64,000 bases of DNA from an uncultured Nitrososphaerota archaeon (lineage in GTDB: Archaea; Thermoproteota; Nitrososphaeria; Nitrososphaerales; Gagatemarchaeaceae), in contig CAWISW010000003.1 in NCBI GenBank assembly GCA_963838925.1, positions 416,001 through 480,000 on the forward strand, written 5' to 3'. Shown here piece after piece: positions 1,691 through 57,897 of this stretch (positions within the stretch are counted from its first letter, which is position 1; each line of letters opens with the position of its first letter). The notes below the pieces were generated by a model. The model made no database searches. It was not told the DNA's origin and worked only from the letters and a program-made list of their open reading frames with translations. The position numbers and the translations under genes are program-made.

Positions 1691-1727
1691 TGGTGGGGCG
1701 TTGTGACGTGGCACGGGAAGCGGATCA
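1691..1727 (-). repeat. Decayed duplicate of the tRNA-Trp 3' end (att-like)
   Basis: tggtgggg-cg....gac.tg....cggatca aligns with 2575-2608. Confidence 0.5.
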
Positions 1728-2429
1728 ACGCTCTGTTATCATGTAGCCTTGAAACTGATAGCTCGTGAAGTTCCACGTCTCGCTTTGGATGGACCAGCCC
1801 TGACTCCCCGACGAGCCAGCGTGGTAGACCCACAGTTGCTCCAGATTCACCGTCACGATGAACGGATTGTAGTATCCCTCCTCTCCCGGAAAGGCGAGCC
1901 CGAAGGTGGCGTCGGCGGCGTTCGGTCCTGTCGCCACGACTCTTGCCGTTTCGAGATTTGTGATCGGCCTCACGCTCCAGGCCGCGGCGGACGCCTTGGA
2001 GCTCTGGAAGAGCTGCAGGTAGGCTATGCCGATGTCTGGCTTGCCAATGTAGTTCCCCGCGAGAGAGGAAACTGCCCCGTCGTAAGTCAGGGCAATCGGG
2101 TTTCCAGTCCACGACGACACAGGCGAATCTGCGTAGAGGCCCAGCAAGCCGGACGCGTTCTCCTTCCCCAGGTACGCTACGAACCTCTCGACCTGCGCCC
2201 TCACCGCCGTCTCGTTGGAGGCGGAAAGTGCCGAGTTCGCCTGCGTCGGGCTCGTCGGCGAGGCCGAAGCGGCGGCGGTGGTAGACGTGCCAGAGGTCGA
2301 AGTTGAGCTGGTGGGGACCGAGACTCCGCCCCGTGGAGAATAGCTGACGATTAGGAGCATTGCAAGGATCCCGGCGGCGGCCAGAGCGGTGCCCGAATCA
2401 ATGCCGCCGAATGCCAAGCTCCTGACCAA
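1725..2429 (-). CDS. Membrane-anchored SnoaL/NTF2-like protein, paralog of 30759-31373
   Basis: N-terminal TM, S/T linker, C-terminal WSIQSETWNF versus WLISQEVWDF. Confidence 0.6.
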   Translation of the reverse strand: MVRSLAFGGIDSGTALAAAGILAMLLIVSYSPRGGVSVPTSSTSTSGTSTTAAASASPTSPTQANSALSASNETAVRAQVERFVAYLGKENASGLLGLYADSPVSSWTGNPIALTYDGAVSSLAGNYIGKPDIGIAYLQLFQSSKASAAAWSVRPITNLETARVVATGPNAADATFGLAFPGEEGYYNPFIVTVNLEQLWVYHAGSSGSQGWSIQSETWNFTSYQFQGYMITER

Positions 2430-2574
2430 GCTACTCCCAGAAGATGAGGCCTCCGGAGATATTTACGCCGTATGGAAGATTCTCCCTACTGCAGCCCCCG
2501 CGCACCGTCGGCCTCCAGACTGAGGGGAGCGCGAGGGCGCCGCCTTCGCACATCGGATGCAAGCAGGTAGAAGA

Positions 2575-2714
2575 TGGTGGGGACGGCCGGACTTGAACCG
2601 ACGGATCACAGGTATCGCCGCTCCGATGGGAAATCATCCACGCAAGCGTGTCATCAAACCTTTTGTCGTTTGACCACTGGAGCCTGTTGCCATGCCTGTC
2701 TAGGCTACGTCCCC
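2575..2714 (-). tRNA. trnW: tRNA-Trp(CCA) with 63-nt intron at 37/38 (2614-2676), encoded CCA
   Basis: GGGGACG acceptor, ACAGG-CTCCAG|A-CCTGT anticodon arm, GGTTCAAGTCC T-arm; intron has TGATGA C box and GGAGC complementary to the anticodon loop, like box C/D pre-tRNA-Trp introns. Confidence 0.93.
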
Positions 2715-2779
2715 CCATCGAGACGGCCGAGACACAACGGGGATTAAAGCACAGCGCAAGAGCCGTTCTGGTCGGGGGG

Positions 2780-2932
2780 TCAGACCAGCCTGGAGCCGCA
2801 CTGCGGGCACGCCCCACCGAACTTGGCCTTGCACCCGGGGCAGAAGTGTAGCCCGCAGCCCGTGCACGTGGAGAAGCCGATCCCCAGCTTGTGGCACCCG
2901 GCGCACCCCGCCGGGACGTTGACCATCCCCAT
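2780..2932 (-). CDS. 50-aa protein with four CxxC motifs (double Zn finger)
   Basis: Manual translation MGMVNVPAGCAGCHKLGIGFSTCTGCGLHFCPGCKAKFGGACPQCGSRLV. Confidence 0.7.
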   Translation of the reverse strand: MGMVNVPAGCAGCHKLGIGFSTCTGCGLHFCPGCKAKFGGACPQCGSRLV

Positions 2933-2994
2933 GAGCGAGTGGTAGGCGAGCCCGGCTTGAAAACGCTTCCAGCGCCTCGCCGCGCCGCCGGCCG

Positions 2995-5620: not shown

Positions 5621-5687
5621 TACGTTGCCCGTGTTATGAGAACCCTTCCATCAAAAGGGTTAAATTCCCTCGAGGGGGAGCGAGAGT

Positions 5688-5808
5688 TCAGCCGGCCATA
5701 GCGTGTGGGTCCGACCTGGACTCTTTCCGAACCCAGAAGTCAAACCACATGTCGTCTAGGTGTTAGTGAGGTCCGAAAGGTCTCGTGAAGCCTAGATGTC
5801 GGCACCTT
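5688..5808 (+). rRNA. rrf: 5S rRNA, stand-alone
   Basis: GGCCATAGC...CCGAACCCAGAAGTCAAACC...TAGTGAGG..GAAA..CTCGTGAA; terminal helix GCCGGC/GTCGGC; TTAAAT upstream. Confidence 0.93.
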
Positions 5809-5814
5809 TCCATC

Positions 5815-6468
5815 CTATCCCGGTCTGTTTTCTTCAAAAATTCTCTTCTTGTATTCGTGCAATCCGATGTCCGTGGCCTTCTCGGGGAAGGGACCGGTCC
5901 TCAATACTACCTCCGCTTGGAACGCCTTCTGGCCGACAAGGTATGGGCTTACCAACCGGAGAATTACGAAGGCTCGATAGCCTTGTGCATTGGTCTCCCA
6001 ATAGGGAACCAATGTGCCGTCTTTGGCCTCTCGAAAGTGCCGCCTGAATCCCACGCACATGAGTTCTGCCACTTGACGAACGGGTAGCGGGTCGTACATG
6101 ATCACCTCAAGAACGAGGGTGTGCCGTTTCCTTCGTCCGTTCTTCTTGTAACGATAGCCAAAACTAAACTCGTCTACAATTGCCCTTGCCAAGAGCTTTC
6201 GGTCTCCAACGTCTCGAAGACTAGTTTCTAGTTCTCGATCTATTCGCGCTCGCTTCGCAATCTTGGGAGGCTCTTCAATCATTGCTCGCAGCCGAATCTT
6301 CATCGATTCTTCTTGCAGAATACTCTCGAGACCGAAGCTACGAATCCACTTTCTGGCGGTTGTAAACGATACCTTGTAGTGACCGGCGACAGCGGTAATG
6401 CTCACATAGGTACGAAGCGCATCCTCGAGTTCGCCGCGTTTTGGTTTCTTGAGGAGCCATCGGGGCAC
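5815..6468 (-). CDS. HTH plus degenerate LAGLIDADG-like protein
   Basis: N-terminal HTH (ITAVAGHYKVSFTTARKW), LLARAIVDEFSFGY, C-terminal ILRLVSPYLVGQKAFQA. Confidence 0.55.
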   Translation of the reverse strand: MPRWLLKKPKRGELEDALRTYVSITAVAGHYKVSFTTARKWIRSFGLESILQEESMKIRLRAMIEEPPKIAKRARIDRELETSLRDVGDRKLLARAIVDEFSFGYRYKKNGRRKRHTLVLEVIMYDPLPVRQVAELMCVGFRRHFREAKDGTLVPYWETNAQGYRAFVILRLVSPYLVGQKAFQAEVVLRTGPFPEKATDIGLHEYKKRIFEENRPG

Positions 6469-20529: not shown

Positions 20530-20843
20530 GGTGGCGGGTAGGGCTGGGAGGCTAGCCGTCTTCTCCACTCCAACCGGCTATAGGAGTGCCAGTAACCGTC
20601 GGGTAAAGCCATCCCTCCTCTTTCCTGCGCGCCTGGGCGAGATGATCTCACGCCGGAGCGGGCGGTCGCGAGGTGCGGGCTCCTCGAAGGAGGGGTTCTG
20701 ACTCTTGATTGCCGAAACGGGTGAGGTCCGGGAGGGAGCAACCCTAAGGTGACACGGCCACGCTGCTCCGTCTACGTGTGGGATCGCCCGGTGTGCGCGA
20801 TTGGGAGGGGACGGGGTGGTGAACTCCGGCGGGTCTGCCACCA
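20530..20843 (+). ncRNA. ffs: SRP (7S) RNA
   Basis: Helix 8 AGGTCCGGGAGGGAGCAACC, helix 6 CTCCTCGAAGGAG, terminal pairing GGTGGCGGGT/GGTCTGCCACC, about 314 nt, TTTAAG upstream. Confidence 0.92.
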
Positions 20844-20871
20844 TTTTGTGGCGAACACCGCGGTCCGTTAA

Positions 20872-22206
20872 ATGCGAACGCGCCTTCATAGTAGGTGCCA
20901 TGAGATGAGACAGACGTTCGAGCGCTCCCCATACAGGCACCTCCTCGAGGACCCGGTGGTCCTCGGCTGGGTAACGGAGGGACAGAGGGGGAGCCCGGCC
21001 CTCGCGGGAGGGAGGTTCAGGCGCCTGGGGAACGCGTGCGCCGCATTGAAGACGACCCCGGCAGAGCTCGCTAAGATGGACGAGAGGCAGGCCGTGGGCT
21101 TCCTGCGGCAGCTCGTGGGCGTGTGCGAGGCGAGGGGGATCACGGGCGTGACGACCAAGGGCTACGTCACGGCGGTCAAGAGCTGGTGGCGCTTCAACGA
21201 CCTCGAGGTGAGGAAGAGGGTGACGATCAGGCAGGGGGCGGGGATCTACGACAACGAGCGCATCCCGACGAGGGAGGAGCTCCAGAGGATCCTCGACGTC
21301 TCGCCCATGAGGGAGAAGGTCGCCGCCTCGCTCATCGCCTTCTGCGGATTCAGGCCGCAGGTCTTCGGCGACTTTTTGGGGACGGACGGGCTCGTGCTCG
21401 GGGACGTCCCCGAGATGGAGGTGGCGGGGAGGGAGGTGCGGTTCTCGAAGGTGCCGGCCCTCGTCAGGGTGAGGAAGACGATAAGCAAGAAGCGGAACGC
21501 GTACTTCGCGTTCGCGCCGCAGCAGGCCTGCGACTACCTGAAGAACTACCTCGAGCGGCGGATCGGCCGCGGCGAGGGGCTCTCCCCGGAGTCGCCGCTG
21601 CTCACCTCGGTCTGGGACTACGACCCGCGCCAGGCCGCGCGCATCCGTACGGCCAACATCCAGAAGACCATCGGGAAGTCGATGAGGAAGGCCGGGTTCG
21701 GGTGGCGCCCGTACGTGCTCCGCAGGTACTTCGACGTGCGGATGATGGAGGCGGAGGCCGACGGCCTGATCATCCCCGACTGGCGCGCGTTCTGGATGGG
21801 GCACGCCGGGAGCATGGAGGCGACGTACACGGTGAACAAGGCGCTCCCGGAGGCGACCATCGAGAAGATGCGCGAGGCCTATGGGAGGGCGTGCGAGAAG
21901 CACCTCACCACCGGGAAGGCGGAGGGGGTCACCAGGGAGACGATGCTCGCGACGTTCAACAGGCGCTTCCTCAAGCTCTCTGGGTGGGCGGACGGGGAGG
22001 TCGAGGCCCTCGGCGACCTCAGCGCGATCGGGGAGGAGAGGCTGCAGGAGCTGCTCGAGCAGAAGAGCATGCGGAAGCTGGGCCTCAACGGGAACAGGCA
22101 GAAGGTGGTGCAGATCGGCGATGTCAAGAGGTTCATCGAGGAGGGGTGGGAGTACCTGTCGACGCTCCCCTCGGGGGAGGCAATCGTCAGGCTTCCGGGC
22201 GGCTAG
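20872..22206 (+). CDS. Tyrosine recombinase/integrase (start may be 20905)
   Basis: GFRPQ (R), ISKK (K), PYVLRRYF (H/Y-x-x-R), WMGH, ATY (Y). Confidence 0.9.
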   Translation: MRTRLHSRCHEMRQTFERSPYRHLLEDPVVLGWVTEGQRGSPALAGGRFRRLGNACAALKTTPAELAKMDERQAVGFLRQLVGVCEARGITGVTTKGYVTAVKSWWRFNDLEVRKRVTIRQGAGIYDNERIPTREELQRILDVSPMREKVAASLIAFCGFRPQVFGDFLGTDGLVLGDVPEMEVAGREVRFSKVPALVRVRKTISKKRNAYFAFAPQQACDYLKNYLERRIGRGEGLSPESPLLTSVWDYDPRQAARIRTANIQKTIGKSMRKAGFGWRPYVLRRYFDVRMMEAEADGLIIPDWRAFWMGHAGSMEATYTVNKALPEATIEKMREAYGRACEKHLTTGKAEGVTRETMLATFNRRFLKLSGWADGEVEALGDLSAIGEERLQELLEQKSMRKLGLNGNRQKVVQIGDVKRFIEEGWEYLSTLPSGEAIVRLPGG

Positions 22207-22279
22207 CTGGACACTTGGAGTCGCGTTTTGCCTTTGTGCAGTTGTGGAAGCGAGAGTCACGCGCTTTCCTTCGCTCGAG

Positions 22280-22510
22280 TCATGAACTGGAGCGGTTCAG
22301 CTCGCGGTAGAGCAACCTTGAGTAGAGCTTGAGCTTGATCAGCAACTCGTCCTCTGGGACGTGGTCGGGCTCCGAGAGGATAAGGTCCCTGAGGGCGCTC
22401 GAAGAAGGGAGCGTGGTTCTCGCAAGGTTCTTCAGGTCGACGATGCTCACGAGGGCCTGGGCGCGGTCGGGAGACTGCATGCTTCCACTGACGGTAGCCT
22501 GCTGCCGCAT
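22280..22510 (-). CDS. Small hypothetical protein
   Basis: Compact 76-aa ORF with plausible composition. Confidence 0.5.
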   Translation of the reverse strand: MRQQATVSGSMQSPDRAQALVSIVDLKNLARTTLPSSSALRDLILSEPDHVPEDELLIKLKLYSRLLYRELNRSSS

Positions 22511-22754
22511 TTAACAGGGCATGGCCTCTGAACCGACATGGCTGGGAGTCCATTCCTCACGGTGAGGGTGCATCAACAGTTGACTTCTTGGCCATCCGCT
22601 CAGGCGCGAGGAGAAGGGCCTGCGATACCCACACGCCTTCGATTCGCACGACCTGGTCAAAATCCCCTCTCCAGTAATGGCCCCTACTTGCCCGGGCCCG
22701 GCGGGTTGCTCTTGAAAAATTAAGCGCGAGTCGTTGCGAATGGATTTGAGAACG

Positions 22755-23510
22755 TCAGCCGTTGACCACCGTGAAATGCATGACCGACACTTGACCCCAC
22801 TCGTCCTCCACCGCCACACTGTAGGTTCCAGGAGTGAAGGGTGTTGTTGGCGGAGGTCCTCCATTGCCGCCCCCGATTATGGGATTCTGTGAACCCGAGA
22901 AGTTTGCGAGGTTCCAATAACCACTCGTGGTAAAGTTGTATGACATGACATAGGGCCCGAATTCTTGGACGACTCCCGGCCCCGGTCCAGTCCAAGTGAC
23001 GTTTGCCATGTCGCTGTCAGGCTGGAACGTGATGGTTTTCGCAATCAGGGCGCTATAGCAAGTATATCCGAAGGTGGCGTTGACAGCAGTTGGCAACTGC
23101 TGGACAGAGTAGTTTCCGCTGACAATTTCTACTTCGAGAGGGTAGTTCAAATGACAGGCGCCCCAAGGAGTGACTGGAACACCTTCGAACGACCAGTCAG
23201 TGGACGGAAGGACCGTTGCAACAGTTGGTAGGATGTTCGTTACCCAAATAGAAAGACTCAGATTCTGACCCACTACCAGGTTAGCAGAATTGAGGGATGT
23301 TGTCAACCTAAGGATAGTTGATGCGTTTGATTGGATGAATGAGGATGAAGTCGTCTGTGATGTTCCGGTTGCCGTGATGCCCGACTCCGAACTTCTCGAG
23401 CCGGACCCTTTCTTAGGATAGAGGAGGGCCAAAGTTAAGGCTCCGACTAGAATTATGACAATCAGTCCTATGACAAGTGGAACCTTATGACTATGCCGAC
23501 TTAGATTCAT
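22755..23510 (-). CDS. Membrane-anchored extracellular protein, paralog of 57096-57773
   Basis: N-terminal TM; FTPGTYSVAVEDEWGQVSVMHFTV versus FQPGEYTVAAGDSWGQEDILHFRV. Confidence 0.75.
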   Translation of the reverse strand: MNLSRHSHKVPLVIGLIVIILVGALTLALLYPKKGSGSRSSESGITATGTSQTTSSSFIQSNASTILRLTTSLNSANLVVGQNLSLSIWVTNILPTVATVLPSTDWSFEGVPVTPWGACHLNYPLEVEIVSGNYSVQQLPTAVNATFGYTCYSALIAKTITFQPDSDMANVTWTGPGPGVVQEFGPYVMSYNFTTSGYWNLANFSGSQNPIIGGGNGGPPPTTPFTPGTYSVAVEDEWGQVSVMHFTVVNG

Positions 23511-23613
23511 GACTCAATGCCTTCAAGCAAGGCATGCCTCGTTTTGAACTCTTTGCCCAACAGAATCAAGCCGGGTATCCATTTGCAAGCCGCGTAGATG
23601 CGAAAAAGGTGAA

Positions 23614-24576
23614 TCAAGTTCCGCAGCTATTCTGGTAAGTCCACGTAAAGTCACCAGTGATGCTGTTGGGGGTGGATAGAGCCAGGTTATATGGCGATCC
23701 ACAATTATCCATCACGTAGGTATTGTCGTTGCCATTGTGGAAGGGCGTGTAGTAAAATTGGCAGCTCGTCGTGGAATCGCATATCGCAGGATAGATGGCG
23801 GTCACTGAGCTGAAAGTTGGTAGGGCAGCTGTTCCGCCGCTCAATGTCGGGATTTCAGCAATAGTCTGAGACCAGTAGGCCGTGCCTGACTGGCTCAGCA
23901 CACCGCTCGCGCAACCCCAGCCTGCTCCATTATTGGCAGTGTAATCATTCACGAAGGCTTCGTATTGGCTTGAGCTACCACCCCAATATGGCCCCCACTC
24001 TTCGAGCGCTAGCATATAGTCGCCAGTGCTTACAGGATACGAACTTGTTGAGCATGTTCCCAACGTCGAACCGCCCGAGTAAAGCCAGTCCCACCAAGCG
24101 TCATAAGTCGCTGACCCGCATGAGCCTCCAGAGGTGCAGGTGATGGTTCCAGCGGTGCCCGACTGTACCAGGAAACCTCCTCCGCCTGCATTCTGAGACA
24201 TTCCAGTCCAAATGCCTAAATCGCAAGTGTACGGAGATGATGCGTAACACTGACTATTGGAACTGACAGACGGCTGGTAGAAGTACGAGTCCGTGTCGTA
24301 CACCGCCTGTGCACTCCCACCGGAAATATATTGCACCCCATATCCCGACCATTGGCAGCATGGTGCGTAAACCGTCGTGGTAACGTTAATCCCAAGCACC
24401 CGGCTCATAGCGGGATTCTCCCAGACCTGAACCGTTTCAGGGACATTGTAACTCCCAACCTTGGTAACTATTCCTGGAACACTGAAAAGTACTGCGAGTT
24501 CTCCGAGGGCATCGACGCTGCAAGATTGAGAATGGAGACTAAAGTCCCCGGAAACAACTTTGCCAGAGTGTCTCAT
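23614..24576 (-). pseudogene. G1 (glutamic) peptidase-like gene, 5'-truncated
   Basis: WSGY, IWTG, LVQSGT, IAEIP; lacks signal peptide and about 80 N-terminal residues relative to 31462-32745. Confidence 0.65.
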
Positions 24577-24773
24577 TCAGCTCCTCAACGTACACCGCGA
24601 AAGACTACTACTCAGGTCATGGTTGGAGCGGGTTCAACACCGCCCCGTCTGGATACGCCTGGAGTGCCGTCGGCGACTGGATTTATCAAGGCACCTCTGA
24701 CATTACCACTGCTATTGTAAGCGGCAGTACAACCCAGTTCACTGAGACGTACGTCTCTAGTCAACAAATATAG
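24558..24773 (+). pseudogene. 3' fragment of another G1-peptidase-like gene
   Basis: Manual translation ending ...GSTTQFTETYVSSQQI*, resembling the C-termini FTQTYDSS and FTWTYQNS. Confidence 0.5.
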
Positions 24774-24796
24774 GGACGCTCCATCCAATATGCTGA

Positions 24797-25282
24797 ATGA
24801 GCATGAAGACCGCTGTCACAATGGCTTTAGTCCTCCTCTCCGTTGCGTTTGGCACAATTGTCTCTTTCGAGGCAATCTCACTTCGTGAGAGTAACGTGGG
24901 CGCTCAGTCATCTACCATCGAAAATATCGGGACACTTGAAGTCACAACGTCTTCTTCCTTGTGCCCCGGATTGCAGGATAACATGATTGCCCTGAACAAA
25001 ACAATCGCCGCGATTCAACAGAACGCCACCTTTGTTCTTCTTGAGAAAGGAATGGGCTACAACTATTCTTCAGATGAGGTGTCTTACATACACTATGACA
25101 ACGGAACGAATGTTTGCGAGAATGCGATCTTGCAGTTCACCCCTGAAATTCCTAATTGCGGTCCGACCATTGTTGCTATGGTGACTGCGGGTGGTAGCAT
25201 TGTTGCAGTCTACTCTGCTTCTGCTCTGAGTAACCATGGTTACACTCAGTCTTACTCAACCAATTCAACCAGCGGGTGCTGA
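24797..25282 (+). CDS. Secreted or membrane-anchored hypothetical protein
   Basis: Signal/TM segment, several Cys and N-x-S/T sequons. Confidence 0.65.
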   Translation: MSMKTAVTMALVLLSVAFGTIVSFEAISLRESNVGAQSSTIENIGTLEVTTSSSLCPGLQDNMIALNKTIAAIQQNATFVLLEKGMGYNYSSDEVSYIHYDNGTNVCENAILQFTPEIPNCGPTIVAMVTAGGSIVAVYSASALSNHGYTQSYSTNSTSGC

Positions 25283-25345
25283 AGTCAAAGTCTGTCGAGT
25301 TTGAGAGCAATTTGCCCCAGTTCAGTTTCTGTCCGAATCGGAGGC

Positions 25346-25600
25346 GACATCCACTACCTCACCCCAGACCTCCGCATCATTCCCTTCTGCTCGTTCAACG
25401 TGATTGCCGAGTGGTATCGCGACAAGATCCAGCAAAAGTACGGCCTGCCAATCGAGGCGTGGGAAGCCAAGAACGGCAAGAAGCTCGAAGACGGGCTCTA
25501 CAGAGGAACCCTAAGGCGCGGCGGCCACCACGCAGGCTGCGGATGCGCGGTCGGAGAGCGGGGCGAGGAAGTCCACATCCAGCCTATCACGGGAACTTAG
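25346..25600 (+). pseudogene. 3'-terminal fragment of a Tes-like (tetraether synthase) radical SAM gene
   Basis: DIHYLTPDLRIIPFCSFNVIAEWYRDKIQ...KLEDGLYRG resembles the C-terminus of Tes/MJ0619-family proteins. Confidence 0.7.
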
Positions 25601-26090
25601 CTCACATGACCGGCCCGACTATGCGAAGGGCCGAGCAGCAGCGGGCGCAGCGGGGTCTGCGGGAGCCTGTTAAGCTGGGAACGCAGGCTTGAAGAGCAGG
25701 CCTGCCCTCCACGACCTTCAGATTGACTCCTCGGCCCGAGGAACCAAAGGAGTACGCGATGACGGTGGTCAATCTTGATCTGCCTCTTGGAGGACGTTGC
25801 ACCGGAGCAGGAGCCTACTCTCGACATCAGTGAGATTCCTCTCCAGAAGCCCACCGACGGCTCCTCTACTGCCGCACACCCTCTTGCGAGGTTAGCGCAG
25901 CAGCTTCACATGATGCCGTTTCGGCCACCGTTCTTGATGGCCAACCCTCCTGTCTTGTCGACAGGAGAGCACCCGTTGCTCAACCCAGCGGTCGAGTCGG
26001 GATCTTCAGGGGGAAAATTGAATCTCTCCACGTGGGAGGAAAAGGGCCCAGAGCCCGCGTCCCCATGTCTGCGAAGGAAACTTCCGTCCG

Positions 26091-26417
26091 TCACTTCGTC
26101 ACTGTTGCAAGCTCGCCGAGGATTTTCTTGCCCGGGTCGGTAAGGAAGTAGCTCGAGTACGAAGCCTTGCCCTTCCTGTCGTAGGTGAAGCTCACTAGCC
26201 TCATCGCCTTCAACACGCCGAGATGGTATGCAACAAGCGCCTTGTCCTCCTTGAACCTCTTTGCTATGTCGTTGAACGCTATCCCGGGGTTCTCAGCTAT
26301 CAGCAGGAAGGCGTCCAGCCGTATCCGATTTTGCAGAGCGCCATACAGCATCAGCTTGCGCTGTGCCTCCTTGCGGCTGATTCCCTGTAGCTTGCTGCTT
26401 TGCATGCTGCGAGTCAT
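26091..26417 (-). CDS. ArsR-like winged-helix regulator
   Basis: ALQNRIRL...YHLGVLK...YFLTDPG. Confidence 0.8.
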   Translation of the reverse strand: MTRSMQSSKLQGISRKEAQRKLMLYGALQNRIRLDAFLLIAENPGIAFNDIAKRFKEDKALVAYHLGVLKAMRLVSFTYDRKGKASYSSYFLTDPGKKILGELATVTK

Positions 26418-26666
26418 TCTCTCACTCCCTCGCTCTTGGATATAAGGCTTTTTAATAGTTAAATGCAGTTTGAACTTCTAAGAACCCAAAAAATGTCTCA
26501 CGCTAAACGAGGTGCCGAAATTGTCCAAAAGTAAACCAACAACTGTCCGTTCCCTTTCCCAAACCCTCCGAGGAACCATGATTTTCAGGAATCACTGAAC
26601 TGGAAGCCTAGAGGGCAAGTTTCGCTAGCTCGTTAGTAGCCAGCCACATTCTCGCCATCGAAGGCG

Positions 26667-26999
26667 TTAAGGTATACCAGGGACGTGCTCCTGGAGCTCC
26701 TTGAGTTCCTGCTTCCCCCGATCTGTCAGGAAATAGCTCGACGACACCGCCTTCCCTTTCCTTTCGGTGGTGAAGCGAACCAGACCGCCTGCGTGAAGGA
26801 TCGCGAGCTCAACTGCGACGTGCGCCTTTTCGACTTTCAACTCCCGGCAAATCTGTCTGAAGCTTACTCCCTGGTTCTTCGCAATCATGAAGAAAGCCCT
26901 CAACCGCATGCGATTGCCGAGCGCCGTGTAGACCGAGAGCTTCGCGTAAGCTTTCTTGAGTTCTGGACCTTCCAACTTGCTCTTCGTGTCCATCGCCAT
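26667..26999 (-). CDS. ArsR-like winged-helix regulator, paralog of 26091-26417
   Basis: ALGNRMRL...RKGKAVSSSYFLTDRG. Confidence 0.8.
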   Translation of the reverse strand: MAMDTKSKLEGPELKKAYAKLSVYTALGNRMRLRAFFMIAKNQGVSFRQICRELKVEKAHVAVELAILHAGGLVRFTTERKGKAVSSSYFLTDRGKQELKELQEHVPGIP

Positions 27000-27170
27000 C
27001 CATGCCTGAGAAAGGGAGGTAGAAATAGATGACCCGTTCTACATGAGAGTTCATATTTTGTAGCCTGTTAGAGGGCCTCCCTCTCCATTTCCGAAAAGGC
27101 CCCTATACTCTTCACAAAGCCCTCAAGGTTTGCCAGGAACCCTTCGTGGTACAGAATTTCTAACCGGAAT

Positions 27171-27195
27171 GGTTCGAATCCCACCGGGCCCGCCA
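27171..27195 (+). repeat. Isolated tRNA 3' fragment (att remnant)
   Basis: GGTTCGAATCCCACCGGGCCCGCCA with no 5' half nearby. Confidence 0.75.
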
Positions 27196-27273
27196 TTTCC
27201 TCAGTACCGAACCCCCCTAGCTTTTAGTCGTGGTCAAGGGTTCGAGTCGGAAGGGATTCGCGTGAACCTCCCT

Positions 27274-27411
27274 TTACTTTTCGAACAACCTGCCCGTCCA
27301 CTCAAGCATCTGCTCCTTGTGACTCTGGAGGAAGGGCATGTTCAGGTAGTGGTGAAGGGACGTCATCATGGTGTGCCCCTGGCTCAGGAAGATTTCGGCC
27401 GCACGCTCTGG
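27274..27411 (-). pseudogene. C-terminal remnant of a second tyrosine integrase
   Basis: Manual translation PERAAEIFLSQGHTMMTSLHHYLNMPF (GH...Y). Confidence 0.65.
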
Positions 27412-27958
27412 GTTCCAGCTTCCGCACTGTCAAACTTTCGGCTGGTGGAGCAGAGCCCAACTTTGAGCCAGCCCGGAAAATATCACCTGCCGAAGAGCCC
27501 AGCAGGCTGTTCATACAGCACTTGCGATTGGTTCCATAGTCGCTTTATACGTAGCTTGCGATTCCACAGACGGAAAAGGTATGCCACCGTTCATGAGAAG
27601 GAAACGCTCGGGTGAGAAAATAGCATTGCGGTATGCGCGTACCTAATTTTTGCGCGTTGCGAGGAAAGCTTGGTGCCTTCTCCCTTTTGTTGCGTCTACG
27701 ATTCTAACGCCTGGGTTTCGCTCGTCATACCACTCGTTGGTCTGATCACTCTGATTTCACCGTGGCTTGAGCTCGAAGGTCAAAAGACGAACGTGCACAA
27801 CTGGGCTCGCGCACTCAGCTCGTGCCGAAGGATTTCGACAGAATCATAGACTCCCGGGAGCTTTAGCGCGTTACAATAGCATCAATGTGGTGACCTGTTA
27901 TGCCGCATGCGCGCTACCGCATTTGACACTGAGTTCCGAATCAGGCGATCTTCGCATT

Positions 27959-29526: not shown

Positions 29527-29560
29527 TTTCGGCTTACCTGATGTTCCTTCCAGCGGCTCT

Positions 29561-30670: not shown

Positions 30671-30758
30671 AAATGTCAGCTGGTATTCTTCCGCTTATAG
30701 GCCACGCTCATTGGGCTGTTAACCGTCGGCTCCCTGTTCGCGAAACACCGGCGCTAGT

Positions 30759-31373: not shown

Positions 31374-31461
31374 TTCCAGATTTGCTCCGTGTTAATCATT
31401 CCTTTTGGCCCTTTGGGCAAACCACTCTTTACTTGTTGAAAGTTCTCCTTAGGAAAGAGAG

Positions 31462-32745: not shown

Positions 32746-33132
32746 ATGTTACTAATGAAGTTCCCCACGTTTAATTCTTGTGAAATGATGTTCTACATCG
32801 TTTTCTCCTATAGTAGTCTGCAACTTTACAGTCCCTTCGAGCACTTGGCGATTTAATGCGCCTTTTTTGTTACGATACAGTTCCGAGTTCGGCGCTGTGA
32901 CGTTTATTTTACGGTGCCAGAGGTTCCGTGCCGCAAGGGCGGTCATCTTTTGGCCGACTTCAAACCTCATTACTATTCGTATGGTTTCTGTGTATACACA
33001 TCTAGCAGAATCTGCGGTTTCGGACTTCTGGCCCTGGAAAAATGTCACGGCACCAACTCCATCTCTAGGAGTACTCCTGATGGGAGCAAACCAAAACGGC
33101 TTACGCCTGCCTCGCCGGGGCAAACCCTAGAA

Positions 33133-33254
33133 AACCGACGACGACCCGCAGGTTTCGCCGCTCCGATGGGAAATCATCCACGCAAGCGTGTCATCAAACT
33201 TTTTGTCGTTTGACCACTGGAGCCTGTTGCCATGCCTGTCTAGGATACGTCCCC
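33133..33254 (-). pseudogene. Promoterless, 3'-truncated tRNA-Trp copy including the whole intron
   Basis: 33149-33254 matches 2609-2714 with 3 mismatches; weaker match continues to 33133. Confidence 0.9.
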
Positions 33255-33585
33255 TCGGCCGTCGCCATTCTTATGTTCTGATTGAAGTCTGCCGTCAAAG
33301 GACATGGGGGCCATTCCTGTGGAGGAATATCCCTCGCAATTCTCAGTGGATTTTAAATAGGCAAGCCATGTTATCATCGAGTTGCTGGAAAGAACCATGT
33401 CGAGGAAAAGCCTGGTTCACCACCATTTAGTGGCAGGGACCGGCGGGTCTGCCACCATTCTTGGCGAAGACTCTTCCTACTTTTTCCACCCTCCGCGCTC
33501 GACCACGGAAGCGATTCTCAATGTGTAGAAACGTGTCTGTGTGTTATTAGGCAGCGCCCCCTCTCAATGTCCAGGTAGAATACCA

Positions 33586-34182
33586 ATGCAAAACGTCGGC
33601 TACAGACCCGCAGTCACCAACACTGTGTTCGCGGGAGTGACAATCGTCCTGATAATCATCGCCGCGGCAGGCTTCGGCCTTTACGCGACAAAGACCGCAA
33701 CCACGGCGACCTCAACAGTGACCGAGACGATGACCGCCTCGGCAGCGGCATCTACTGGAAGCTCACAGTTGCTCGTCGCGATATGGAACACCAATGCAGG
33801 GGACACGCTCCCTGCCCCGACTGTTACGGTGACCGCTCAGACTGCCGGAGCCACGGTCACGCCTTCAAGTGCGAACCCACCAGGCATATCCCCCGGCAAC
33901 ATAGCGACCTACGGCTACACAATCACGGGGGCGGTTGCGGGCTCACTACCGATCGTCGTATCCATAACGAACAATAGCGGAGTTGCATATGACCCGAACG
34001 TCGCGGTTGTGTCCAGCACTCCTGGGGCAATGGTCACGCCGGCAAGTACCAACCCGACATCCGTATCAGCAAGTAGCACGCAGTCCTTCGACTTCGCGGT
34101 CACAGGAGGAGGAACAGGCCTCATCACGATCAGCCTTTCGTTTCCAGGCCCAGGCCCCATCAGCGTCGCAATATCCATTTAG
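33586..34182 (+). CDS. Membrane-anchored protein with two Ig-like repeats
   Basis: N-terminal TM; repeated T.GA.VTP.S.NP. Confidence 0.65.
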   Translation: MQNVGYRPAVTNTVFAGVTIVLIIIAAAGFGLYATKTATTATSTVTETMTASAAASTGSSQLLVAIWNTNAGDTLPAPTVTVTAQTAGATVTPSSANPPGISPGNIATYGYTITGAVAGSLPIVVSITNNSGVAYDPNVAVVSSTPGAMVTPASTNPTSVSASSTQSFDFAVTGGGTGLITISLSFPGPGPISVAISI

Positions 34183-34388
34183 AGCCTATCCCAAGAATGA
34201 CACCCTGGGACTACCGGGCGCGTCGCCTGGACCAATCCAGGCATCCACGCGTCGATCCAATAATCGGTTTGCAGGGACAGCGTCTCTTTACGAGGCCAGA
34301 GCGTTCGAAGCAGTTTCTCCATGCACACTGCTCGCCGCCTTTTGATTGCCGATCTTCGAGCGGCCCAAGCCGAGGAGCCCAATCAATT

Positions 34389-34409
34389 GGTGGGCTCTGC
34401 CGCCATTTT
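34389..34409 (+). repeat. Degenerate third copy of the SRP RNA 3' end
   Basis: GGTGGGCTCTGCCGCCATTTT versus GGCGGG-TCTGCCACCATTTT. Confidence 0.55.
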
Positions 34410-34440: not shown

Positions 34441-34572
34441 GCGGGGGTCGCCTAGCCTGGTAGGGCGAAGGATTGCTAATCCTTTGTCCGCAAGGATTCG
34501 TGGGTTCGAATTCGGGGCAGATCTTCGTGGCGGACCTGGTCTGCCCGGACGAGTGTCCCACCCCCCGCGCCA
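34441..34572 (+). tRNA. trnS: tRNA-Ser(GCT) with 45-nt intron at 59/60 (34511-34555)
   Basis: AAGGA-TTGCTAA-TCCTT anticodon arm, long variable arm, BHB motif restoring GGTTCGAATCCC, encoded CCA. Confidence 0.93.
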
Positions 34573-52402: not shown

Positions 52403-54433
52403 TTGTCCGGACCTTTTGAAGAGCTGTCGACTGAGCAAGAGAAGGCGTTTTCCCCGCCCATCAAGGAGATAATCCTCGAGAACTTCATGAGCTACGAGTA
52501 CGCCCGGATCCCGCTCAACCAGGGCCTCAACCTCATCGTCGGTCCCAACGGGGCGGGCAAGTCGTCCATCCTGCTCGCCATATCCGTGGCCTTCGGGCAG
52601 GCCTACACCGAGCGCTCGAGGAAGCTGAGCGACCTCATCAGGAGGGGCAAGGACATCGCAAGGGTCTCCCTAATCTTCGACAACCGGGTCAGGGAAGGGA
52701 AGAGGCCCATCCCATACTCAAAGGCCGACACCTTCATGCTCTCCCGCTACCTTCGGAAGGACGGCTCCTACTGGTACGAGGCCGACTACAAGGAGATAGA
52801 CAAGAGCGAGGTCGTGAGGCTCCTTCGCGAGTTCGGGATAAACCCCGACAACCTACTGATCATCATGCACCAGGGGATGATCGAGGAGCTGGGCGCGATC
52901 TCGCAGGAGCAGCGGCTCGTCATGGTGGAGGAGGCGGTGGGCTTCCGCGAGTACAGGGAGAGGATCCTCGCCGCGGAGGCGGACCTCAACAGCATGGTGA
53001 GCGAGGAGGGCTCGCTCGTCCAGCTCATCGACAACGCCAACCAGACGATAGAGTACTGGAAGCAGATCTACGACAGGTACCTTGAGAAGAAGAGGCTCGA
53101 GGAGCACAGGACCCTCCTCGAGAGGGAGCTGCTCTGGGCGCAGGAGGGGAAGCTCTCCCGTTCGCTTTCCTCGATGGCAGAGAGGCTGGAGGCAAAGCGC
53201 GAGTCGCTCGCCGACCTGAGGGAGCAGCAGAAGAAGGCCGGGGGCGAGGCGGAGGGGCACCGCAAGGCCCTGGGCGAGAGGCAGGTCGAGGTCAGGAAGC
53301 TCTACGGGGCTCTCATCAGGGCAGAGAGGGACCGCTCCGGACGCGAGTCCGCCCGCGAGGCGATGAAGGGGCTCCACGACGAGCTCGAGACGCTAACGAA
53401 GGACCTCGAGGAACTGGTGGGCAGCCCCAACGCGCTGGACTCGCGCAGGTCGAAGCGCATCAAGGAGTTCATCGAGTTCGCATCGAAGAAGTCTGGCAGC
53501 GACTCCGAGGAGGCCGGACGCAAGAAGACCGAGCTCGACAGGGAGGTCTCGTCTCTGCAGGCGGAAGTGAGCGGCGTCGAGGACGCGATAAGGAAGGTCA
53601 CCGACGATTACATCGCCCAGCGCGTGAGGTTCGAGGTCCTCGAGTACAGGACCAAGGTCACCGAGTCCGAGATCAGGGAGCTGGAGAGGTCGGAGAGGGA
53701 GGTCAGGGGAGAGCTCGACGCCATGAAGCCCGACCTGGAGAGGGCGGGCGAGAGGATAGTGACGCAGCGCGCGCCCTACGAGGTCTCCGAGGAGCTGAAG
53801 CTCGTCTCGGCCCAGCTGCAGAAGCTTCAGGACCTCCCCGACGACGCCGAGAAGATCTACAGGGACTACACGGGGAACCTCGAGGGCCTGAAGGGCAAGC
53901 TCGAGGAGCTCCAAGGCAACAAGAAGCTGATGCTGCTAGAGCTCGAGGAGAGGAAGAAGGCGTGGAAGAACGCCGTCCAGAGCCTCATCGACGAGGTCGC
54001 GCCCATCTACAAGCAGGTTCTCTCGACGGTCGGGGCGACGGGCGCCATCAGGCTGGACGAGGGAGGCTCCGTCGCCGAGGCCGGGCTTCAGCTCCTCGTC
54101 GGCTTCAAGGGCGCTGAGCCGGCGATCCTCGACCCTTACACGCAGAGCGGAGGCGAGAGGTCGGTCGCGCTGGTCGCGTTCATGTTGTCGCTCCAGAGCA
54201 GGATCATCTCTCCGCTGAGGGCCATGGACGAGTTCGACATCCACATGGACCCGCGCAACAGGGAGGCGATCTTCAAGATGATCCTCGCTCAGGGGAAGAG
54301 GAACCCCAACTCGCAGCACATCGTCATCACGCCGTCGATAATCTCCGTGGCGGACAGGACCGCCCACGTGATCACTGTCCAGTCTGTCCACGGCTCGTCC
54401 CAGGTGAAGGAGTATTCCGGCAGCAGAAGATAG
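52403..54433 (+). CDS. Short Smc5/6-related SMC-like ATPase
   Basis: LENFMSY, GPNGAGKSS, coiled coil, QSGGERSVA, MDEFDIHMDPRN, ITP. Confidence 0.85.
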   Translation: MSGPFEELSTEQEKAFSPPIKEIILENFMSYEYARIPLNQGLNLIVGPNGAGKSSILLAISVAFGQAYTERSRKLSDLIRRGKDIARVSLIFDNRVREGKRPIPYSKADTFMLSRYLRKDGSYWYEADYKEIDKSEVVRLLREFGINPDNLLIIMHQGMIEELGAISQEQRLVMVEEAVGFREYRERILAAEADLNSMVSEEGSLVQLIDNANQTIEYWKQIYDRYLEKKRLEEHRTLLERELLWAQEGKLSRSLSSMAERLEAKRESLADLREQQKKAGGEAEGHRKALGERQVEVRKLYGALIRAERDRSGRESAREAMKGLHDELETLTKDLEELVGSPNALDSRRSKRIKEFIEFASKKSGSDSEEAGRKKTELDREVSSLQAEVSGVEDAIRKVTDDYIAQRVRFEVLEYRTKVTESEIRELERSEREVRGELDAMKPDLERAGERIVTQRAPYEVSEELKLVSAQLQKLQDLPDDAEKIYRDYTGNLEGLKGKLEELQGNKKLMLLELEERKKAWKNAVQSLIDEVAPIYKQVLSTVGATGAIRLDEGGSVAEAGLQLLVGFKGAEPAILDPYTQSGGERSVALVAFMLSLQSRIISPLRAMDEFDIHMDPRNREAIFKMILAQGKRNPNSQHIVITPSIISVADRTAHVITVQSVHGSSQVKEYSGSRR

Positions 54434-54439
54434 GGCTCG

Positions 54440-54566
54440 CGACAAGAAGCTCGAGGACGGGCTCTCCCGTGGAACCCTGAGGCGCGGCGGGAACCACGCC
54501 GGCTGCGGATGCGCCGTCGGCGAGCAGGGCGAGAGAGTCCACATCCAGCCGATTTCCGGAGCCTAG
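54440..54566 (+). pseudogene. Distal half of the Tes-like 3' fragment, reading frame intact
   Basis: DKKLEDGLSRGTLRRGGNHAGCGCAVGEQGERVHIQPISGA*, matches 25474-25600. Confidence 0.85.
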
Positions 54567-54750
54567 ACAGGAAAGAACGAACCTCGCCGAGGGACTTTCC
54601 GTTGGCCAGGCTAGGGTCAAGGCAATCTTTGGGCGTCTAGGCGGAAGAATCGGAATCTTATTTCAGCGAAGTAGCAAGAATGAGCGAATTTGCCGAATTA
54701 GTTAGATAAGGCGTAAATAATCGCGACGATGTTAATGCGAATAGGGCGAT

Positions 54751-55089
54751 ATGACTATTGGCAACTTGGTGCCAATGACGTCTGCTTACTCAGGATGGGG
54801 CGCGGTTGGTCGAGACCAAAAGAGCGGAGGAAAGCGAAGGTCGCATATCGAGGTCGAAGCCGCGATTCTCAGAGCGCTCGTTTCCGAGTATCTCACGATA
54901 AACCAGCTCGCGATCCGTGTGAACCTGAACAGAGTCCTTGCTAAGAACTATGTCAAGGAACTGTCTCAGAAAGGGCGGGTCGAAAGCAAGAAGACAAAAG
55001 GGCTCGCTAGGTACTCGGCCTCTCAGAACGGAGTCGCATGGTTGAAGCGCTTCGAGACCTTGGCAAGTAATCCGAGATACGGATTATAG
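54751..55089 (+). CDS. Winged-helix regulator
   Basis: KRRSHIEV..ILR...TINQLAIRVNLN. Confidence 0.75.
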   Translation: MTIGNLVPMTSAYSGWGAVGRDQKSGGKRRSHIEVEAAILRALVSEYLTINQLAIRVNLNRVLAKNYVKELSQKGRVESKKTKGLARYSASQNGVAWLKRFETLASNPRYGL

Positions 55090-55230
55090 ATACCGGATGA
55101 TAGTTTCTGCCTGCCTTAACTAGTTGACAATTGCCTTTAAGCGCCAATGATGCCAATTGCGCACTCGACGCGGTCGATAATCTTCCTAAGATCCTCAAAA
55201 ACAAAGAAAAGCTCGGTCTCGGCGCATGCG

Positions 55231-56481
55231 ATGAGAACTGCGTTAACGATATCGGTATTGCTTTTGCTGGTCGCGGCTCGAACTCAACCAATTGGCGCAA
55301 CAACTTCGACGAGCTCCCACACACCAACTTCGAGATATGATGCAACTCGGGCGGCAAGCTCTATGGTTGCCGCGGAATCCTCAAACGTCTACGTCGGTAG
55401 CTACTCTGCGATTTCAGGTCTGAGTGTGCAATCTGGCGGGGCTCCGCTCTTCTGCGGCCCTATTTTTGTGTCAAGTTCAACTATTCTCAACCTGACCACG
55501 ACAAAGGAACCCGACACAGTGACATCTAACTCTAAGGAATGCTACTACCTCCCCACTTTCTACTATCCAAGTCACAGCGCAGATTCATTTTCGTCAGAGA
55601 GGCAGGCGACTTTCTATGTCGACAATTCGACCATGAAGGTGGCGCTTGTCATGGACACTGCGCGCGAACCTGTTTCATATTGGAAGTGCAGTTACTGCTG
55701 GTCTGGATATGAGGTAAAGTAGACAGCATATGCAGTCGCCTCCTATGTGGACGTCCCCTATGTATCCGACTCTTCTTCAAATGGATTTGTGGGCACTGTT
55801 AACAGCACACAATGCTGCATAGTTTCCACATGGGTCGGTGAGGGTGATGCGCAGGGCGCATCGGACAACAATTGGTCGCAAGACGGCTATGTCATCAACG
55901 ATGCCGGTGCATGGAGTCACTACGGCTATACCTACGGATTCTGGTATGCCTTCTTCCATGTAGGTGGAATCTCAACCGACAATGTCTTCGATCAATATTC
56001 AATGGATTCGTGTGTCAACGCAGGCGACAACGTCGAGAGCTACCTGGAGAAGGATGTTAGTGGCCTAAACTACCTCTATTGGGCAGAGATTGACGACCTG
56101 TCGAGTTCGAGTTGCAGCTTGACGACCGGCAACTACAACATGGACCTCAACTATGATTGGTCCTATGTGGAGTCCGAGGCCCCCAGCTACCACACGGACT
56201 CGGGAACGCCACCTCAACCGCAAACGGCGCAATGGCCATATTTCAATAACTACGCCCAAGCCTCTGCTTCGATGGGCATCTCCGCGGACGCATACGACTC
56301 AAGCTACACCGCGTATGGCTTCGACTCATCGACCGTAACAAACTATGGTAGCAACCCCACGCAAGGCGATTCCGCGTACACGCCTTGCGACAGTGATGAC
56401 AACTCTTATCCTAGCTCTTGGGCCTCGTCAACCACATTCTATGCCATGTATGGAGACAGTGAGTACGAAACGACGTGCTAG
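55231..56481 (+). pseudogene. Secreted G1-peptidase-like gene with one in-frame TAG (55720-55722)
   Basis: Two same-frame ORFs join as WSGYEVK*TAYAV; STWVG, WSQDG, VESEAP. Confidence 0.7.
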
Positions 56482-56530
56482 GAGTGACCACTGAACAAAG
56501 CATCCATATGGATCTCGATTAAAAATCGCC

Positions 56531-56947
56531 TTAAGCAGGAGTTTCTTGAAAGGCCGAAATCGTTTGGTAAAGAAATATTACGAACCCTATGAAGATTACG
56601 ATTAAGGGAAATATGTAGTAAGAGATTGCCGGGACCGGCGGTCGAAGGATCGTAAGCAGGAAGACGAGCGCGGCTCCGAAAAACGCGGAAAAAGTGCCGG
56701 ACAATGGAATGACCATTCGCCGGAATCGTATCATGTTCTCGAAAACCAAACGGTCCGCCACGTAACCATCACGTGTCTCCTGAATCAGGCCAAACCGTAA
56801 GAGCTTTTGAACGTGATATTCCGCAACAGATGGTGAGCTGAGTCCGAGGTTTCGATGAATGTCGGAAAGACGAATCGGACCACGTCTGTAAACATGGCGA
56901 TAGACCTTGAGAGTAGTTCCCGAAATAGCATCGTTTGCCGTGGGCAA
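56531..56947 (-). CDS. wHTH protein with two C-terminal TM helices
   Basis: GTTLKVY...LGLSSPSVAEYHVQKL, hydrophobic C-terminus. Confidence 0.8.
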   Translation of the reverse strand: MPTANDAISGTTLKVYRHVYRRGPIRLSDIHRNLGLSSPSVAEYHVQKLLRFGLIQETRDGYVADRLVFENMIRFRRMVIPLSGTFSAFFGAALVFLLTILRPPVPAISYYIFPLIVIFIGFVIFLYQTISAFQETPA

Positions 56948-57095
56948 TCATCGGGTTAATTGTCGACGCGGGTATTTTGCCTTTCGAAGAGGCGCTCGAA
57001 GTCCTCTGAAGAGAAGGAATACATAACACGTTTGAATTATTCGCGGAGAGGATTTCTAAACCATAGCAATATACTCGTCCGCGAACGTTTCTAAA

Positions 57096-57773
57096 GTGAT
57101 GTCAGAATATCGACGACAACTCCTCACTGGGGTAGTCCTAGCAATACTACTCTCGGCACTTTTTGCGTTCGAATTGGAGTCGTACTTCTCACCTGCTAAG
57201 AGTAACGAACCCTCCCTAGCCAAATCCAGTTCCATAGATACAGATTTGGGACTCAATTTCACTTTGACCGCTAAACCTTCAAGTCTTCAAGAGGGAGATA
57301 ACGTGACGATTGGGGTGTATCTCTTCAACATACTTCCTTCGACTAACAACCTTACTTCTCCGACTTCAAATCTTTATTCGCTGGGGCCGTGTCCCACGAC
57401 TCTTCCGTTTTGGTTCGAAGTTATTCAGGGAAACTATGAGGCCGATAACATGTCTCAAGGGCAGCCGCTCGCATTGTGGCAGGCATACCCTTACTGCGCA
57501 AATAGCATTCCTGTCCAGAACTACTCGTTTGAAGTGCGCAGCGATAATGTAACTGTCGCACTTGCTACCACAACTCTTGGTGAGAAGCAAGTCATTTTTT
57601 CCGAATCTGCTTCCTACATCGACAGCTATTTTGGATCATGGGGAGTGCTGACCCATCCCGACTCGCGTTTCGCGTTGTTCCAACCTGGAGAGTACACGGT
57701 AGCGGCGGGAGACTCTTGGGGGCAAGAAGACATACTACATTTCCGAGTTGTGGCTACACGAACAAGCCCGTAG
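57096..57773 (+). CDS. Membrane-anchored extracellular protein, paralog of 22755-23510
   Basis: NILP, GNY, FQPGEYTVAAGDSWGQ. Confidence 0.75.
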   Translation: MMSEYRRQLLTGVVLAILLSALFAFELESYFSPAKSNEPSLAKSSSIDTDLGLNFTLTAKPSSLQEGDNVTIGVYLFNILPSTNNLTSPTSNLYSLGPCPTTLPFWFEVIQGNYEADNMSQGQPLALWQAYPYCANSIPVQNYSFEVRSDNVTVALATTTLGEKQVIFSESASYIDSYFGSWGVLTHPDSRFALFQPGEYTVAAGDSWGQEDILHFRVVATRTSP

Positions 57774-57897
57774 CCTCACCTCAGCATCGCACTCTTCTGC
57801 TTGTTCAAGGTAATACACGAGTGGCACCGCGACAAGATTCACCAAAAGTGCGGCTCCCGATTGAGGTGTAGATAGCTAAGAACGACAAGAAGCTCGA
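57774..57897 (+). pseudogene. Proximal half of the Tes-like 3' fragment, decayed
   Basis: Aligns with about 25357-25488, with indels and substitutions. Confidence 0.8.

Follow-up and report, generated by a model that had tools for sequence, protein, structure and literature searches.

We analyzed a 64,000-nucleotide stretch, hereafter called the window, from the genome of an uncultured Nitrososphaerota archaeon (positions 416001-480000 of contig C3; assembly of 1.84 Mb in three contigs, 87% complete), concentrating on two gene islands, island 1 (30614-33254) and island 2 (54440-59188). Both islands are products of recombination at 15- to 26-bp core sequences inside conserved host genes, and the process is best read as a variant of a known one, not as a new kind of mobile circle. 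With moderate confidence, we favor an account in which integrase-less units, whose cores lie in host genes, build up stacked or nested arrays, and we infer that the agent was a tyrosine integrase, either acting in trans or since lost. An initial annotation, made from the letters of the window, had described both islands as small circles without an integrase. Its observations were largely correct. The units are bounded by direct repeats, lack a detectable integrase and carry envelope or secreted proteins. Their docking sites are conserved loci and one look-alike sequence, and integrases in trans are the probable agents. Below, G000 denotes the genome under study, the other G labels the genomes of relatives, and L labels the stretches extracted.

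Island 2 and the Tes Core

Island 2 is a true insertion of two stacked units into a 19-bp look-alike of the Tes core. In eight of the nine loci extracted from relatives at this site, next to an SMC-like gene, the sequence of 52.9-54.46 kb was joined straight to that of 59.19-60.5 kb (54458 to 59188) with a single 19-bp core, while the ninth locus held a different insertion. At the empty site, the SMC-like gene ends in its stop codon, 7 nt follow, and CGACAAGAAGCTCGAGGAC then leads into the next gene. A single base separates CGACAAGAAGCTCGAGGAC from CGGCAAGAAGCTCGAGGAC of Tes, so a look-alike of the Tes core occurs here naturally. Within the window, core copies were found at 54440, 57883 and 59189, the last with 4 mismatches of 19, indicating that the insertion is made of two tandem units, E_A and E_B. 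The initial annotation had recognized the insertion and taken E_A for the whole of it, whereas it runs on to 59188, just before the third core. A copy of E_B with 82% identity occupies the same site in G031, with a different unit to its left.

The sequence CGACAAGAAGCTCGA is identical at 54440 and 57883 and, at up to two mismatches, had 4 matches against 0.32 expected, a number reached in none of 100 shuffles. It is also the overlap of two Tes-like parts, 54440-54566 and 57780-57898, which matched 25474-25600 (84% identity) and 25370-25489 (78% identity), respectively. The last two ranges belong to an unsplit Tes-like copy at 25344-25600, which had been noted from the start and is real. Read evidence consisted of contigs from two soil metagenome runs of one study (depth about 3-5; rare forms are invisible in contigs). 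As these runs may be the source sample, they provide no independent confirmation. The contigs spanned the junctions at 54440, 57883 and 59189 with zero mismatches, and together with the empty sites in relatives they rule out an assembly artefact as the main explanation.

The Tes-like sequence common to E_A and the site is limited to 19 bp, and E_B has 16 bp in common with the site and otherwise nothing in common with Tes. That units entered repeatedly through no more than 16-19 bp of core sequence points to site-specific recombination and away from homology. The alternative, one of the two routes named by the initial annotation, is docking by homologous recombination, or by an integrase like that of pTN3, through long host-derived segments. 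Host-like sequence would amount to 116-300 bp per circle, identical segments down to 104 bp are recombined by the pTN3 integrase (PMC8371274), and homology of variable length would fit the irregular left ends of the Tes fragments described below. The short identity at the SMC site argues against it, as do the ilvC copies, alike at just 75-81%, and the flanks of island 1, which are attP arms and not tRNA sequence. Docking by homology is thus unlikely, and we give it a low probability; junctions with just 15-26 bp in common do not call for a pTN3-like activity.

Arrays at the tes Locus and an Island in ilvC

The identity of Tes was established with the full-length gene of a relative, which scored 690 bits on the Tes equivalog of NCBIfam. 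The C-terminal fragment was matched in 25 of 31 genomes, and in relatives the gene is 560-570 amino acids (aa) long. As the initial annotation had predicted, tandem cassettes are present at the native tes locus: the 12 loci extracted held 39 Tes 3' fragments, all oriented as the gene and ending within about 16 nt of its stop, with left ends ranging from position 4 to 229. Up to eight fragments followed one another (G012; 7.5 kb, spacing 0.33-2.7 kb), and of the 11 extracted loci with a full-length Tes 3' copy, 9 had extra fragments. Many of the intervals measured 330-470 bp and contained no open reading frame (ORF) of at least 90 aa.

In G000, the array lies at the start of contig C2, with a downstream gene common to C2 and G012, and the native tes gene is not in the assembly. 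The segment C2:201-452 was considered as the native end of tes and rejected, as its homology begins only at the codon DIHY. Three of the four full Tes 3' copies in G000 begin at DIHY, a codon that would mark one defined crossover site upstream from the mid-gene Tes core, and the short fragments have scattered left ends (172, 190, 205, 208 and 218). None of the cassette proteins of the window had a match in the 12 tes loci of relatives at an E-value of 1e-5.

Such rows raise the question of an integron-like platform, in which a host recombinase would capture cassettes at a fixed entry site at the tes 3' end. The single orientation of the Tes fragments downstream of tes, the frequency of extra copies and a cargo of mostly single envelope-protein genes, many with a hydrophobic N-terminus, all agree with this idea. 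Against it, none of the 12 loci has an integrase beside tes, cargo genes point in both directions, the same pattern recurs at four other unrelated sites, and the repeats are pieces of Tes coding sequence (no search was aimed at attC-like structures). The platform is, in our judgment, very improbable, and the integron-like shuffling suggested by the initial annotation is not supported, given the missing adjacent integrase and the mixed gene directions.

A similar arrangement was observed 3-10 kb to the right of the window, where the last 300 bp of ilvC (Pfam) are duplicated around a 6.5-kb island (G000 C3:483060-489879; L069:3060-9879). The gene is uninterrupted in six relatives, to which the gene-fused copy is 75-81% and the displaced copy 90% identical. 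Also on this island are a winged-helix gene, whose identity to that of E_A is 78%, and a full copy of the Tes 3' end. Of note, it encodes an Ice_binding-like protein of 576 aa, and a 551-aa protein beside the ilvC junction yielded no lead (best Atlas score 0.81).

Island 1 and the tRNA-Trp Attachment Site

The tRNA-Trp locus is copied in island 1 as two pieces, 33139-33254 (94-97% identity to 2599-2714) and 30614-30662 (86% identity to 2700-2748), which overlap by the 15-mer CTAGGCTACGTCCCC. This 15-mer occurs at 2700, at 30614 and, with one mismatch, at 33240 (3 matches against 0.13 expected; 3 reached in 0 of 100 shuffles). ARAGORN, run with introns, called no tRNA at 33128-33254. For both islands, therefore, the 15-bp repeats reported at the cassette ends are real and above chance by the shuffle counts. 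Closing either island at its repeat restores a contiguous host-like stretch, as the initial annotation had stated, and the host loci had been rightly named as tRNA-Trp (ARAGORN, Rfam) and Tes. Contig C40 of G017 is 96% identical to 27826-30394 and then resumes at 33331, so that the indel between the two genomes (30395-33330) is larger than island 1; the proposed bounds are those of the repeats and not those of the indel.

The left core of island 1 closes a conserved stretch (30480-30628) that has a TATA-like box and two hairpins. This stretch was found in 19 copies in 8 of the 22 relatives searched, and it may serve as an integrase leader or promoter made complete only by circularization. In 3 of the 12 loci extracted around it, an integrase 41-43% identical to that of the window starts about 300 bp past the stretch. 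In G016, it forms the far end of a 16-kb element that begins, at its near end, with the tRNA-Trp core and then an integrase, and G033, G002 and G015 have the same near end. Its occurrence beside integrases at the tRNA-Trp core indicates that the stretch is the P arm of the attachment (att) site attP for integrases that use the first 15 nt of tRNA-Trp. Island 1 then reads in the order P arm, core, promoter copy, cargo, tRNA copy, core and P' arm, which fits recombination of an attP with a circle carrying an attB-like tRNA-Trp segment. The putative P' arm (33255-33325) showed, by eye, a weak resemblance to the post-core sequence of tRNA-Trp elements in relatives, and G033 also has an attP without integrase that is similar to the one in island 1. 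The initial annotation had proposed that such units also enter secondary sites. This holds for island 2, whose site is empty in relatives, but island 1 lies in an attP-like pad within an integrase-bearing element. As a separate observation, the conserved stretch, about 85-125 bp long, carries the motif ATACCTTACC (for example L047:1851-1935 and L053:2084-2166), which was found again across the core in elements of relatives integrated at tRNA-Trp.

At the native tRNA-Trp gene, homology with six relatives ends at the tRNA 3' end and returns near 1612, leaving a gap of 0.14-4.6 kb. The one-gene cassette claimed there by the initial annotation is only partly confirmed: it lies in this stretch, which varies among relatives, and the repeat around 1691-2574 is just 8-9 nt long. 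In G034, a one-gene cassette of 1.09 kb lies inside tRNA-Trp between perfect 26-bp repeats. The 5' end of the same tRNA-Trp gene (L043:5560-5640) contains a 41-bp insert, including an inverted copy of the promoter region, that may disrupt the gene. Near the tRNA-Trp promoter, a small cysteine-rich gene (window 2779-2968) has its 3' end duplicated in G006 (L045:1109-1160 and 5667-5820), and several relatives have 0.6-3.6 kb between it and the promoter. This looks like a further insertion hot spot.

The Element at the SRP RNA Gene

Island 1 lies within a larger element at the gene for the signal recognition particle (SRP) RNA. The last 20 nt of this RNA are repeated exactly at 33440-33459, and a degenerate copy precedes tRNA-Ser. 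In G034, the SRP RNA gene abuts tRNA-Ser, which represents the empty site, and in seven further relatives the two genes are 0.56-10 kb apart. From the 20-bp repeats and the empty site, we conclude that 20846-33459 is an integrative element (E_SRP), followed by a 0.93-kb cassette. G031 likewise has three SRP cores. The AbiEii/AbiEi-like toxin-antitoxin pair of the window (27959-29526) is 94-96% identical in G017 and G031. The G+C content is 49-55% at 22-34 kb and at 54-60 kb, against about 62% elsewhere in the window.

Tyrosine Integrases

The integrase of E_SRP had weak matches to PF00589 (E-value 0.0089) and to a PHROG integrase (8.9e-6), and no match among PDB sequences or in NCBIfam. A paralogue at C3:13613-14782 (tblastn E-value 8e-33 to the window integrase) scored 67.8 bits on PF00589. 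The family was present in 21 of the 23 genomes of the genus in which it was counted, with up to 13 copies each, and in four relatives an integrase stands directly after the tRNA-Trp core. Neither island contained an integrase by Pfam or PHROG or a tblastn match to the window integrase, nor did tblastn or Pfam detect pieces of a split integrase (SSV-type) at their ends. The initial annotation was thus right that no recombinase is detectable within the islands, but it had missed the integrase of the enclosing E_SRP. The paralogue belongs to a locus (C3:13607-16401) where this second tyrosine integrase adjoins ORFs that, on visual inspection, look like a glutamine synthetase gene, with anchored-protein genes on its other side; the locus is probably another gene-end site.

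Proposed Mechanism and Its Weighing

We propose that the elements of this genus enter gene ends, namely the 3' ends of Tes, ilvC and the SRP RNA and the 5' end of tRNA-Trp. Each element would bring a replacement copy of its target, reaching from its own crossover point to the gene end (the "repair" side), and the rebuilt site could be taken again by newcomers, giving tandem and nested units, many of them without integrase. The copy carried by E_A would run from DIHY to the Tes stop, with the mid-gene Tes core as an inner core. Island 1 would be a 2.6-kb circle with the 5' part and promoter of tRNA-Trp; its carried copy would comprise 3' exon, intron, 5' exon and promoter, with the first 15 nt of the tRNA as inner core, at which the circle would have recombined with an integrase-less attP pad inside E_SRP. 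Where the inner core is used instead, the carried copy would be split and appear permuted. The two-sided host identity around the crossover, which the initial annotation regarded as a special design, would then be accounted for by a carried repair copy with a second core that gets used. This two-core account, for which the tRNA crossover comes from a single case, would supply a simple key to "permuted" attachment sites found elsewhere, in other genomes.

Several results weigh against this interpretation. The 87%-complete assembly yielded no integrase specific to either core, Tes or tRNA-Trp, and none (PF00589 or window type) was present in or beside the 12 tes loci. The contigs of the two metagenome runs contained neither circle junctions nor empty-site joints. 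No cassette turned up at more than one site. The scatter in the left ends of the short Tes fragments is more than a few fixed crossover points would produce, and the account supplies no origin for the integrase-less attP pad. Finally, a second copy of the tRNA-Trp body was present in only 1 of 23 genomes, which makes island 1 a single event.

A different view is that the units are fossils, that is, immobile deletion remnants of elements that once bore integrases, and that the arrays are graveyards. A review reports the loss of integrases following integration in archaea (PMC8371274), and signs of decay are not lacking: ORF-poor intervals in the tes arrays, stops and 78% identity in the upstream Tes part of E_A, an in-frame TAG in its main gene, and an E_B whose 82% identity between two genomes at the same site is close to that of its flanks. 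Decay is harder to reconcile with exact repeats of 15 bp (E_A), 20 bp (E_SRP) and 26 bp (G034), with full attP arms retained up to the expected integrase start here and in G033, and with cassettes that are almost wholly different between relatives, which implies turnover. We regard the fossil view as a possible but clearly less probable explanation than movement of integrase-less units by a tyrosine integrase.

A more far-reaching form of the latter, which we offer tentatively and consider rather doubtful, is a cassette economy without resident integrases. Circles of 0.3-3 kb, with one or two envelope-protein genes and a core from a gene end, would be inserted and excised in trans by a large set of diversified tyrosine integrases, building arrays of up to eight at Tes, SRP RNA, ilvC and tRNA-Trp, with integrase-less attP pads as extra landing sites, as a functional analogue of integrons. 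If true, this would be an archaeal integron analogue built from ordinary attachment sites. The integrase-less units account for most of the variable DNA at the five hot spots and their cargo consists almost only of surface proteins; if moved in trans, they would be a main route of cell-surface change in these archaea, and the integrase family would offer short natural recombination sites. Because archaeal integrated elements are catalogued mainly via their integrases, units of this kind go uncounted.

Cargo Proteins and Other Features

An N-terminal hydrophobic segment was found in 17 of the 20 ORFs checked, and cargo genes lie on both strands (Table 1). The 204-aa protein of island 1 has such a segment and seven paralogues in the genome. 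The initial annotation had assigned a G1-peptidase-like gene with a membrane-anchored partner to both islands. For the 427-aa protein of island 1, which has a 53% identical paralogue at C3:286563, the assignment has a language-model lead (Atlas score 0.95 to Peptidase A4 clusters, 196 shared features), but none of five proteins matched Peptidase G1/A4 (PF01828) in Pfam up to an E-value of 10. The corresponding protein of E_A has no detectable similarity to the other candidate peptidases. Its ORF is interrupted by one in-frame TAG at 55723, and its one homologue (46% identity over the whole query, 436 aa) is unbroken at that position and belongs to no named family. Anchored proteins do occur in both islands, but the partners belong to different families. 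The E_B protein had no match among PDB sequences, PHROGs or NCBIfam, and its single-sequence fold was unusable (mean predicted local distance difference test score 33.7); a role in the movement of its own unit is possible. The gene whose start region bears core copy 3 (ORF 59139-59933) had no family match.

Rfam identified in the window an archaeal SRP RNA (20532-20840), a 5S rRNA and the intron-bearing tRNA that ARAGORN reads as tRNA-Trp(CCA). At 60584-61087, a coiled-coil ORF of 167 aa is built of 33-nt repeats; the stretch 60524-61153 is absent from one metagenome contig and differs among relatives.

Table 1. Positions of the elements, cores and genes discussed in the text (window coordinates).
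Feature	Position	Strand	Remarks
Variable stretch behind tRNA-Trp 3' end	1691-2574	-	Gene 1725-2429, 234 aa, N-terminal anchor
Native tRNA-Trp(CCA)	2575-2714	-	63-nt intron; Rfam tRNA 44.7 bits; ARAGORN with introns
Core O_trp	2700-2714		First 15 nt of tRNA-Trp; promoter region 2715-2748
SRP RNA gene	20532-20845	+	Rfam Archaea_SRP 100.5 bits; last 20 nt (20826-20845) form the left core
E_SRP	20846-33459	+	12.6-kb integrative element, SRP RNA 3' end
Tyrosine integrase of E_SRP	20872-22206	+	444 aa; left end of element
E_SRP cargo, anchored protein	22755-23510	-	
E_SRP cargo, distant relative of island 1 protein	23614-24576	-	
E_SRP cargo, anchored protein	24797-25282	+	
Unsplit Tes 3' copy "X"	25344-25600	+	Codon DIHY to stop
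Two winged-helix genes	26091-26417, 26667-26999	-	Pfam
AbiEii/AbiEi-like pair	27959-28705, 28819-29526	-	Pfam
E_C	30395-33330		2.94-kb indel in E_SRP holding island 1; imperfect 13-15-bp repeat at edges
attP P arm	30480-30613	+	TATA-like box, hairpins; ends in core
Left core and tRNA-Trp promoter copy	30614-30662	+	Core 30614-30628
Membrane-anchored protein	30759-31373	-	204 aa, multi-copy family
Anchored protein, possible peptidase A4/G1	31462-32745	-	427 aa
tRNA-Trp copy	33128-33254	+	5' exon, intron, start of 3' exon; right core 33240-33254, 1 mismatch
Putative attP P' arm remnant	33255-33325	+	Ends before expected integrase gene start
One-gene cassette without integrase	33460-34405	+	0.93 kb; anchored protein 33541-34182
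Degenerate third SRP core	~34388-34405		Right end of 0.93-kb cassette
tRNA-Ser(GCT)	34444-34526	+	Right border of hot spot
SMC_N-family ATPase gene	52403-54433	+	Pfam 1.3e-34; left flank of island 2
E_A	54440-57882	+	Cassette of the initial annotation
E_A core copy 1	54440-54458		Tes 3' end, core to stop, runs to 54566
E_A winged-helix gene	54751-55089		
E_A TAG-interrupted ORF	55147-56481		
E_A winged-helix/transmembrane gene	56531-56947	-	
E_A anchored protein	57096-57773		
E_A decayed upstream part of Tes 3' end	57780-57882		78% identity, stops
E_B	57883-59188	+	Core copy 2 at 57883-57897
E_B single gene	57962-59059		365 aa; weak LAGLIDADG-like C-terminus
Core copy 3	59189-59207	+	4/19 mismatches; start region of next gene

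Comparison With Known Systems

In streptococci, integrase-less units flanked by att sites are stacked beside integrative elements, and accretion occurs at the 3' end of fda. The 0.93-kb cassette beside E_SRP fits these cis-mobilizable elements exactly: like islands 1 and 2 it is att-flanked without a recombinase of its own, and it is the unit for which an adjoining element has an integrase on the same att site. Only E_SRP, in turn, has an integrase gene next to its att site, as expected of an integrative element; repeats together with an empty site were found for E_SRP and island 2, and for island 1 repeats with a larger absence in a relative. Unlike the streptococcal case, the host is an archaeon, conjugation genes are missing, and no cognate integrase for islands 1 and 2 was detected in the assembly.

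Tandem islands at the tmRNA gene of Dehalococcoides, each with an adjacent integrase, also show how repeated entry at one gene end leaves a row of end fragments, but the units described here are far smaller and have no integrases (PMC3146451). Integrons, which have been reported in Archaea as well, similarly consist of rows of small, mostly one-gene cassettes parted by a recurring site (10.1101/2022.02.06.479319). The arrays studied here differ from them: they have no integrase beside them, their genes follow neither one orientation nor a promoter logic, and host-gene pieces serve as the sites. A review of archaea (PMC8371274) covers the loss of integrases, integration in tandem, secondary sites and the homology-driven activity of the pTN3 enzyme, and recombination between long identical segments, as by the pTN3 integrase of Thermococcus, would exploit two-sided identity (PMC8371274, PMC5495485).

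Counterparts are also known in the integrated elements of Thaumarchaeota (Krupovic et al. 2019, PMC6563490). These have att sites of 8-26 bp, target tRNA genes and the 3'-distal parts of protein-coding genes, re-use one site to form tandem arrays, and include small elements with winged-helix genes; they are defined by their integrase, which even the smallest, of 2.6 kb, possesses. We found no description of integrase-less arrays of the present kind in archaea on a narrow literature basis, and the supplementary tables of PMC6563490 may list similar units. Most units here differ from the Thaumarchaeota elements in lacking an integrase, in forming arrays of up to eight and in being nested, yet they have in common with them the short att sites, the gene-end targets, the tandem re-use of one site and the winged-helix genes.

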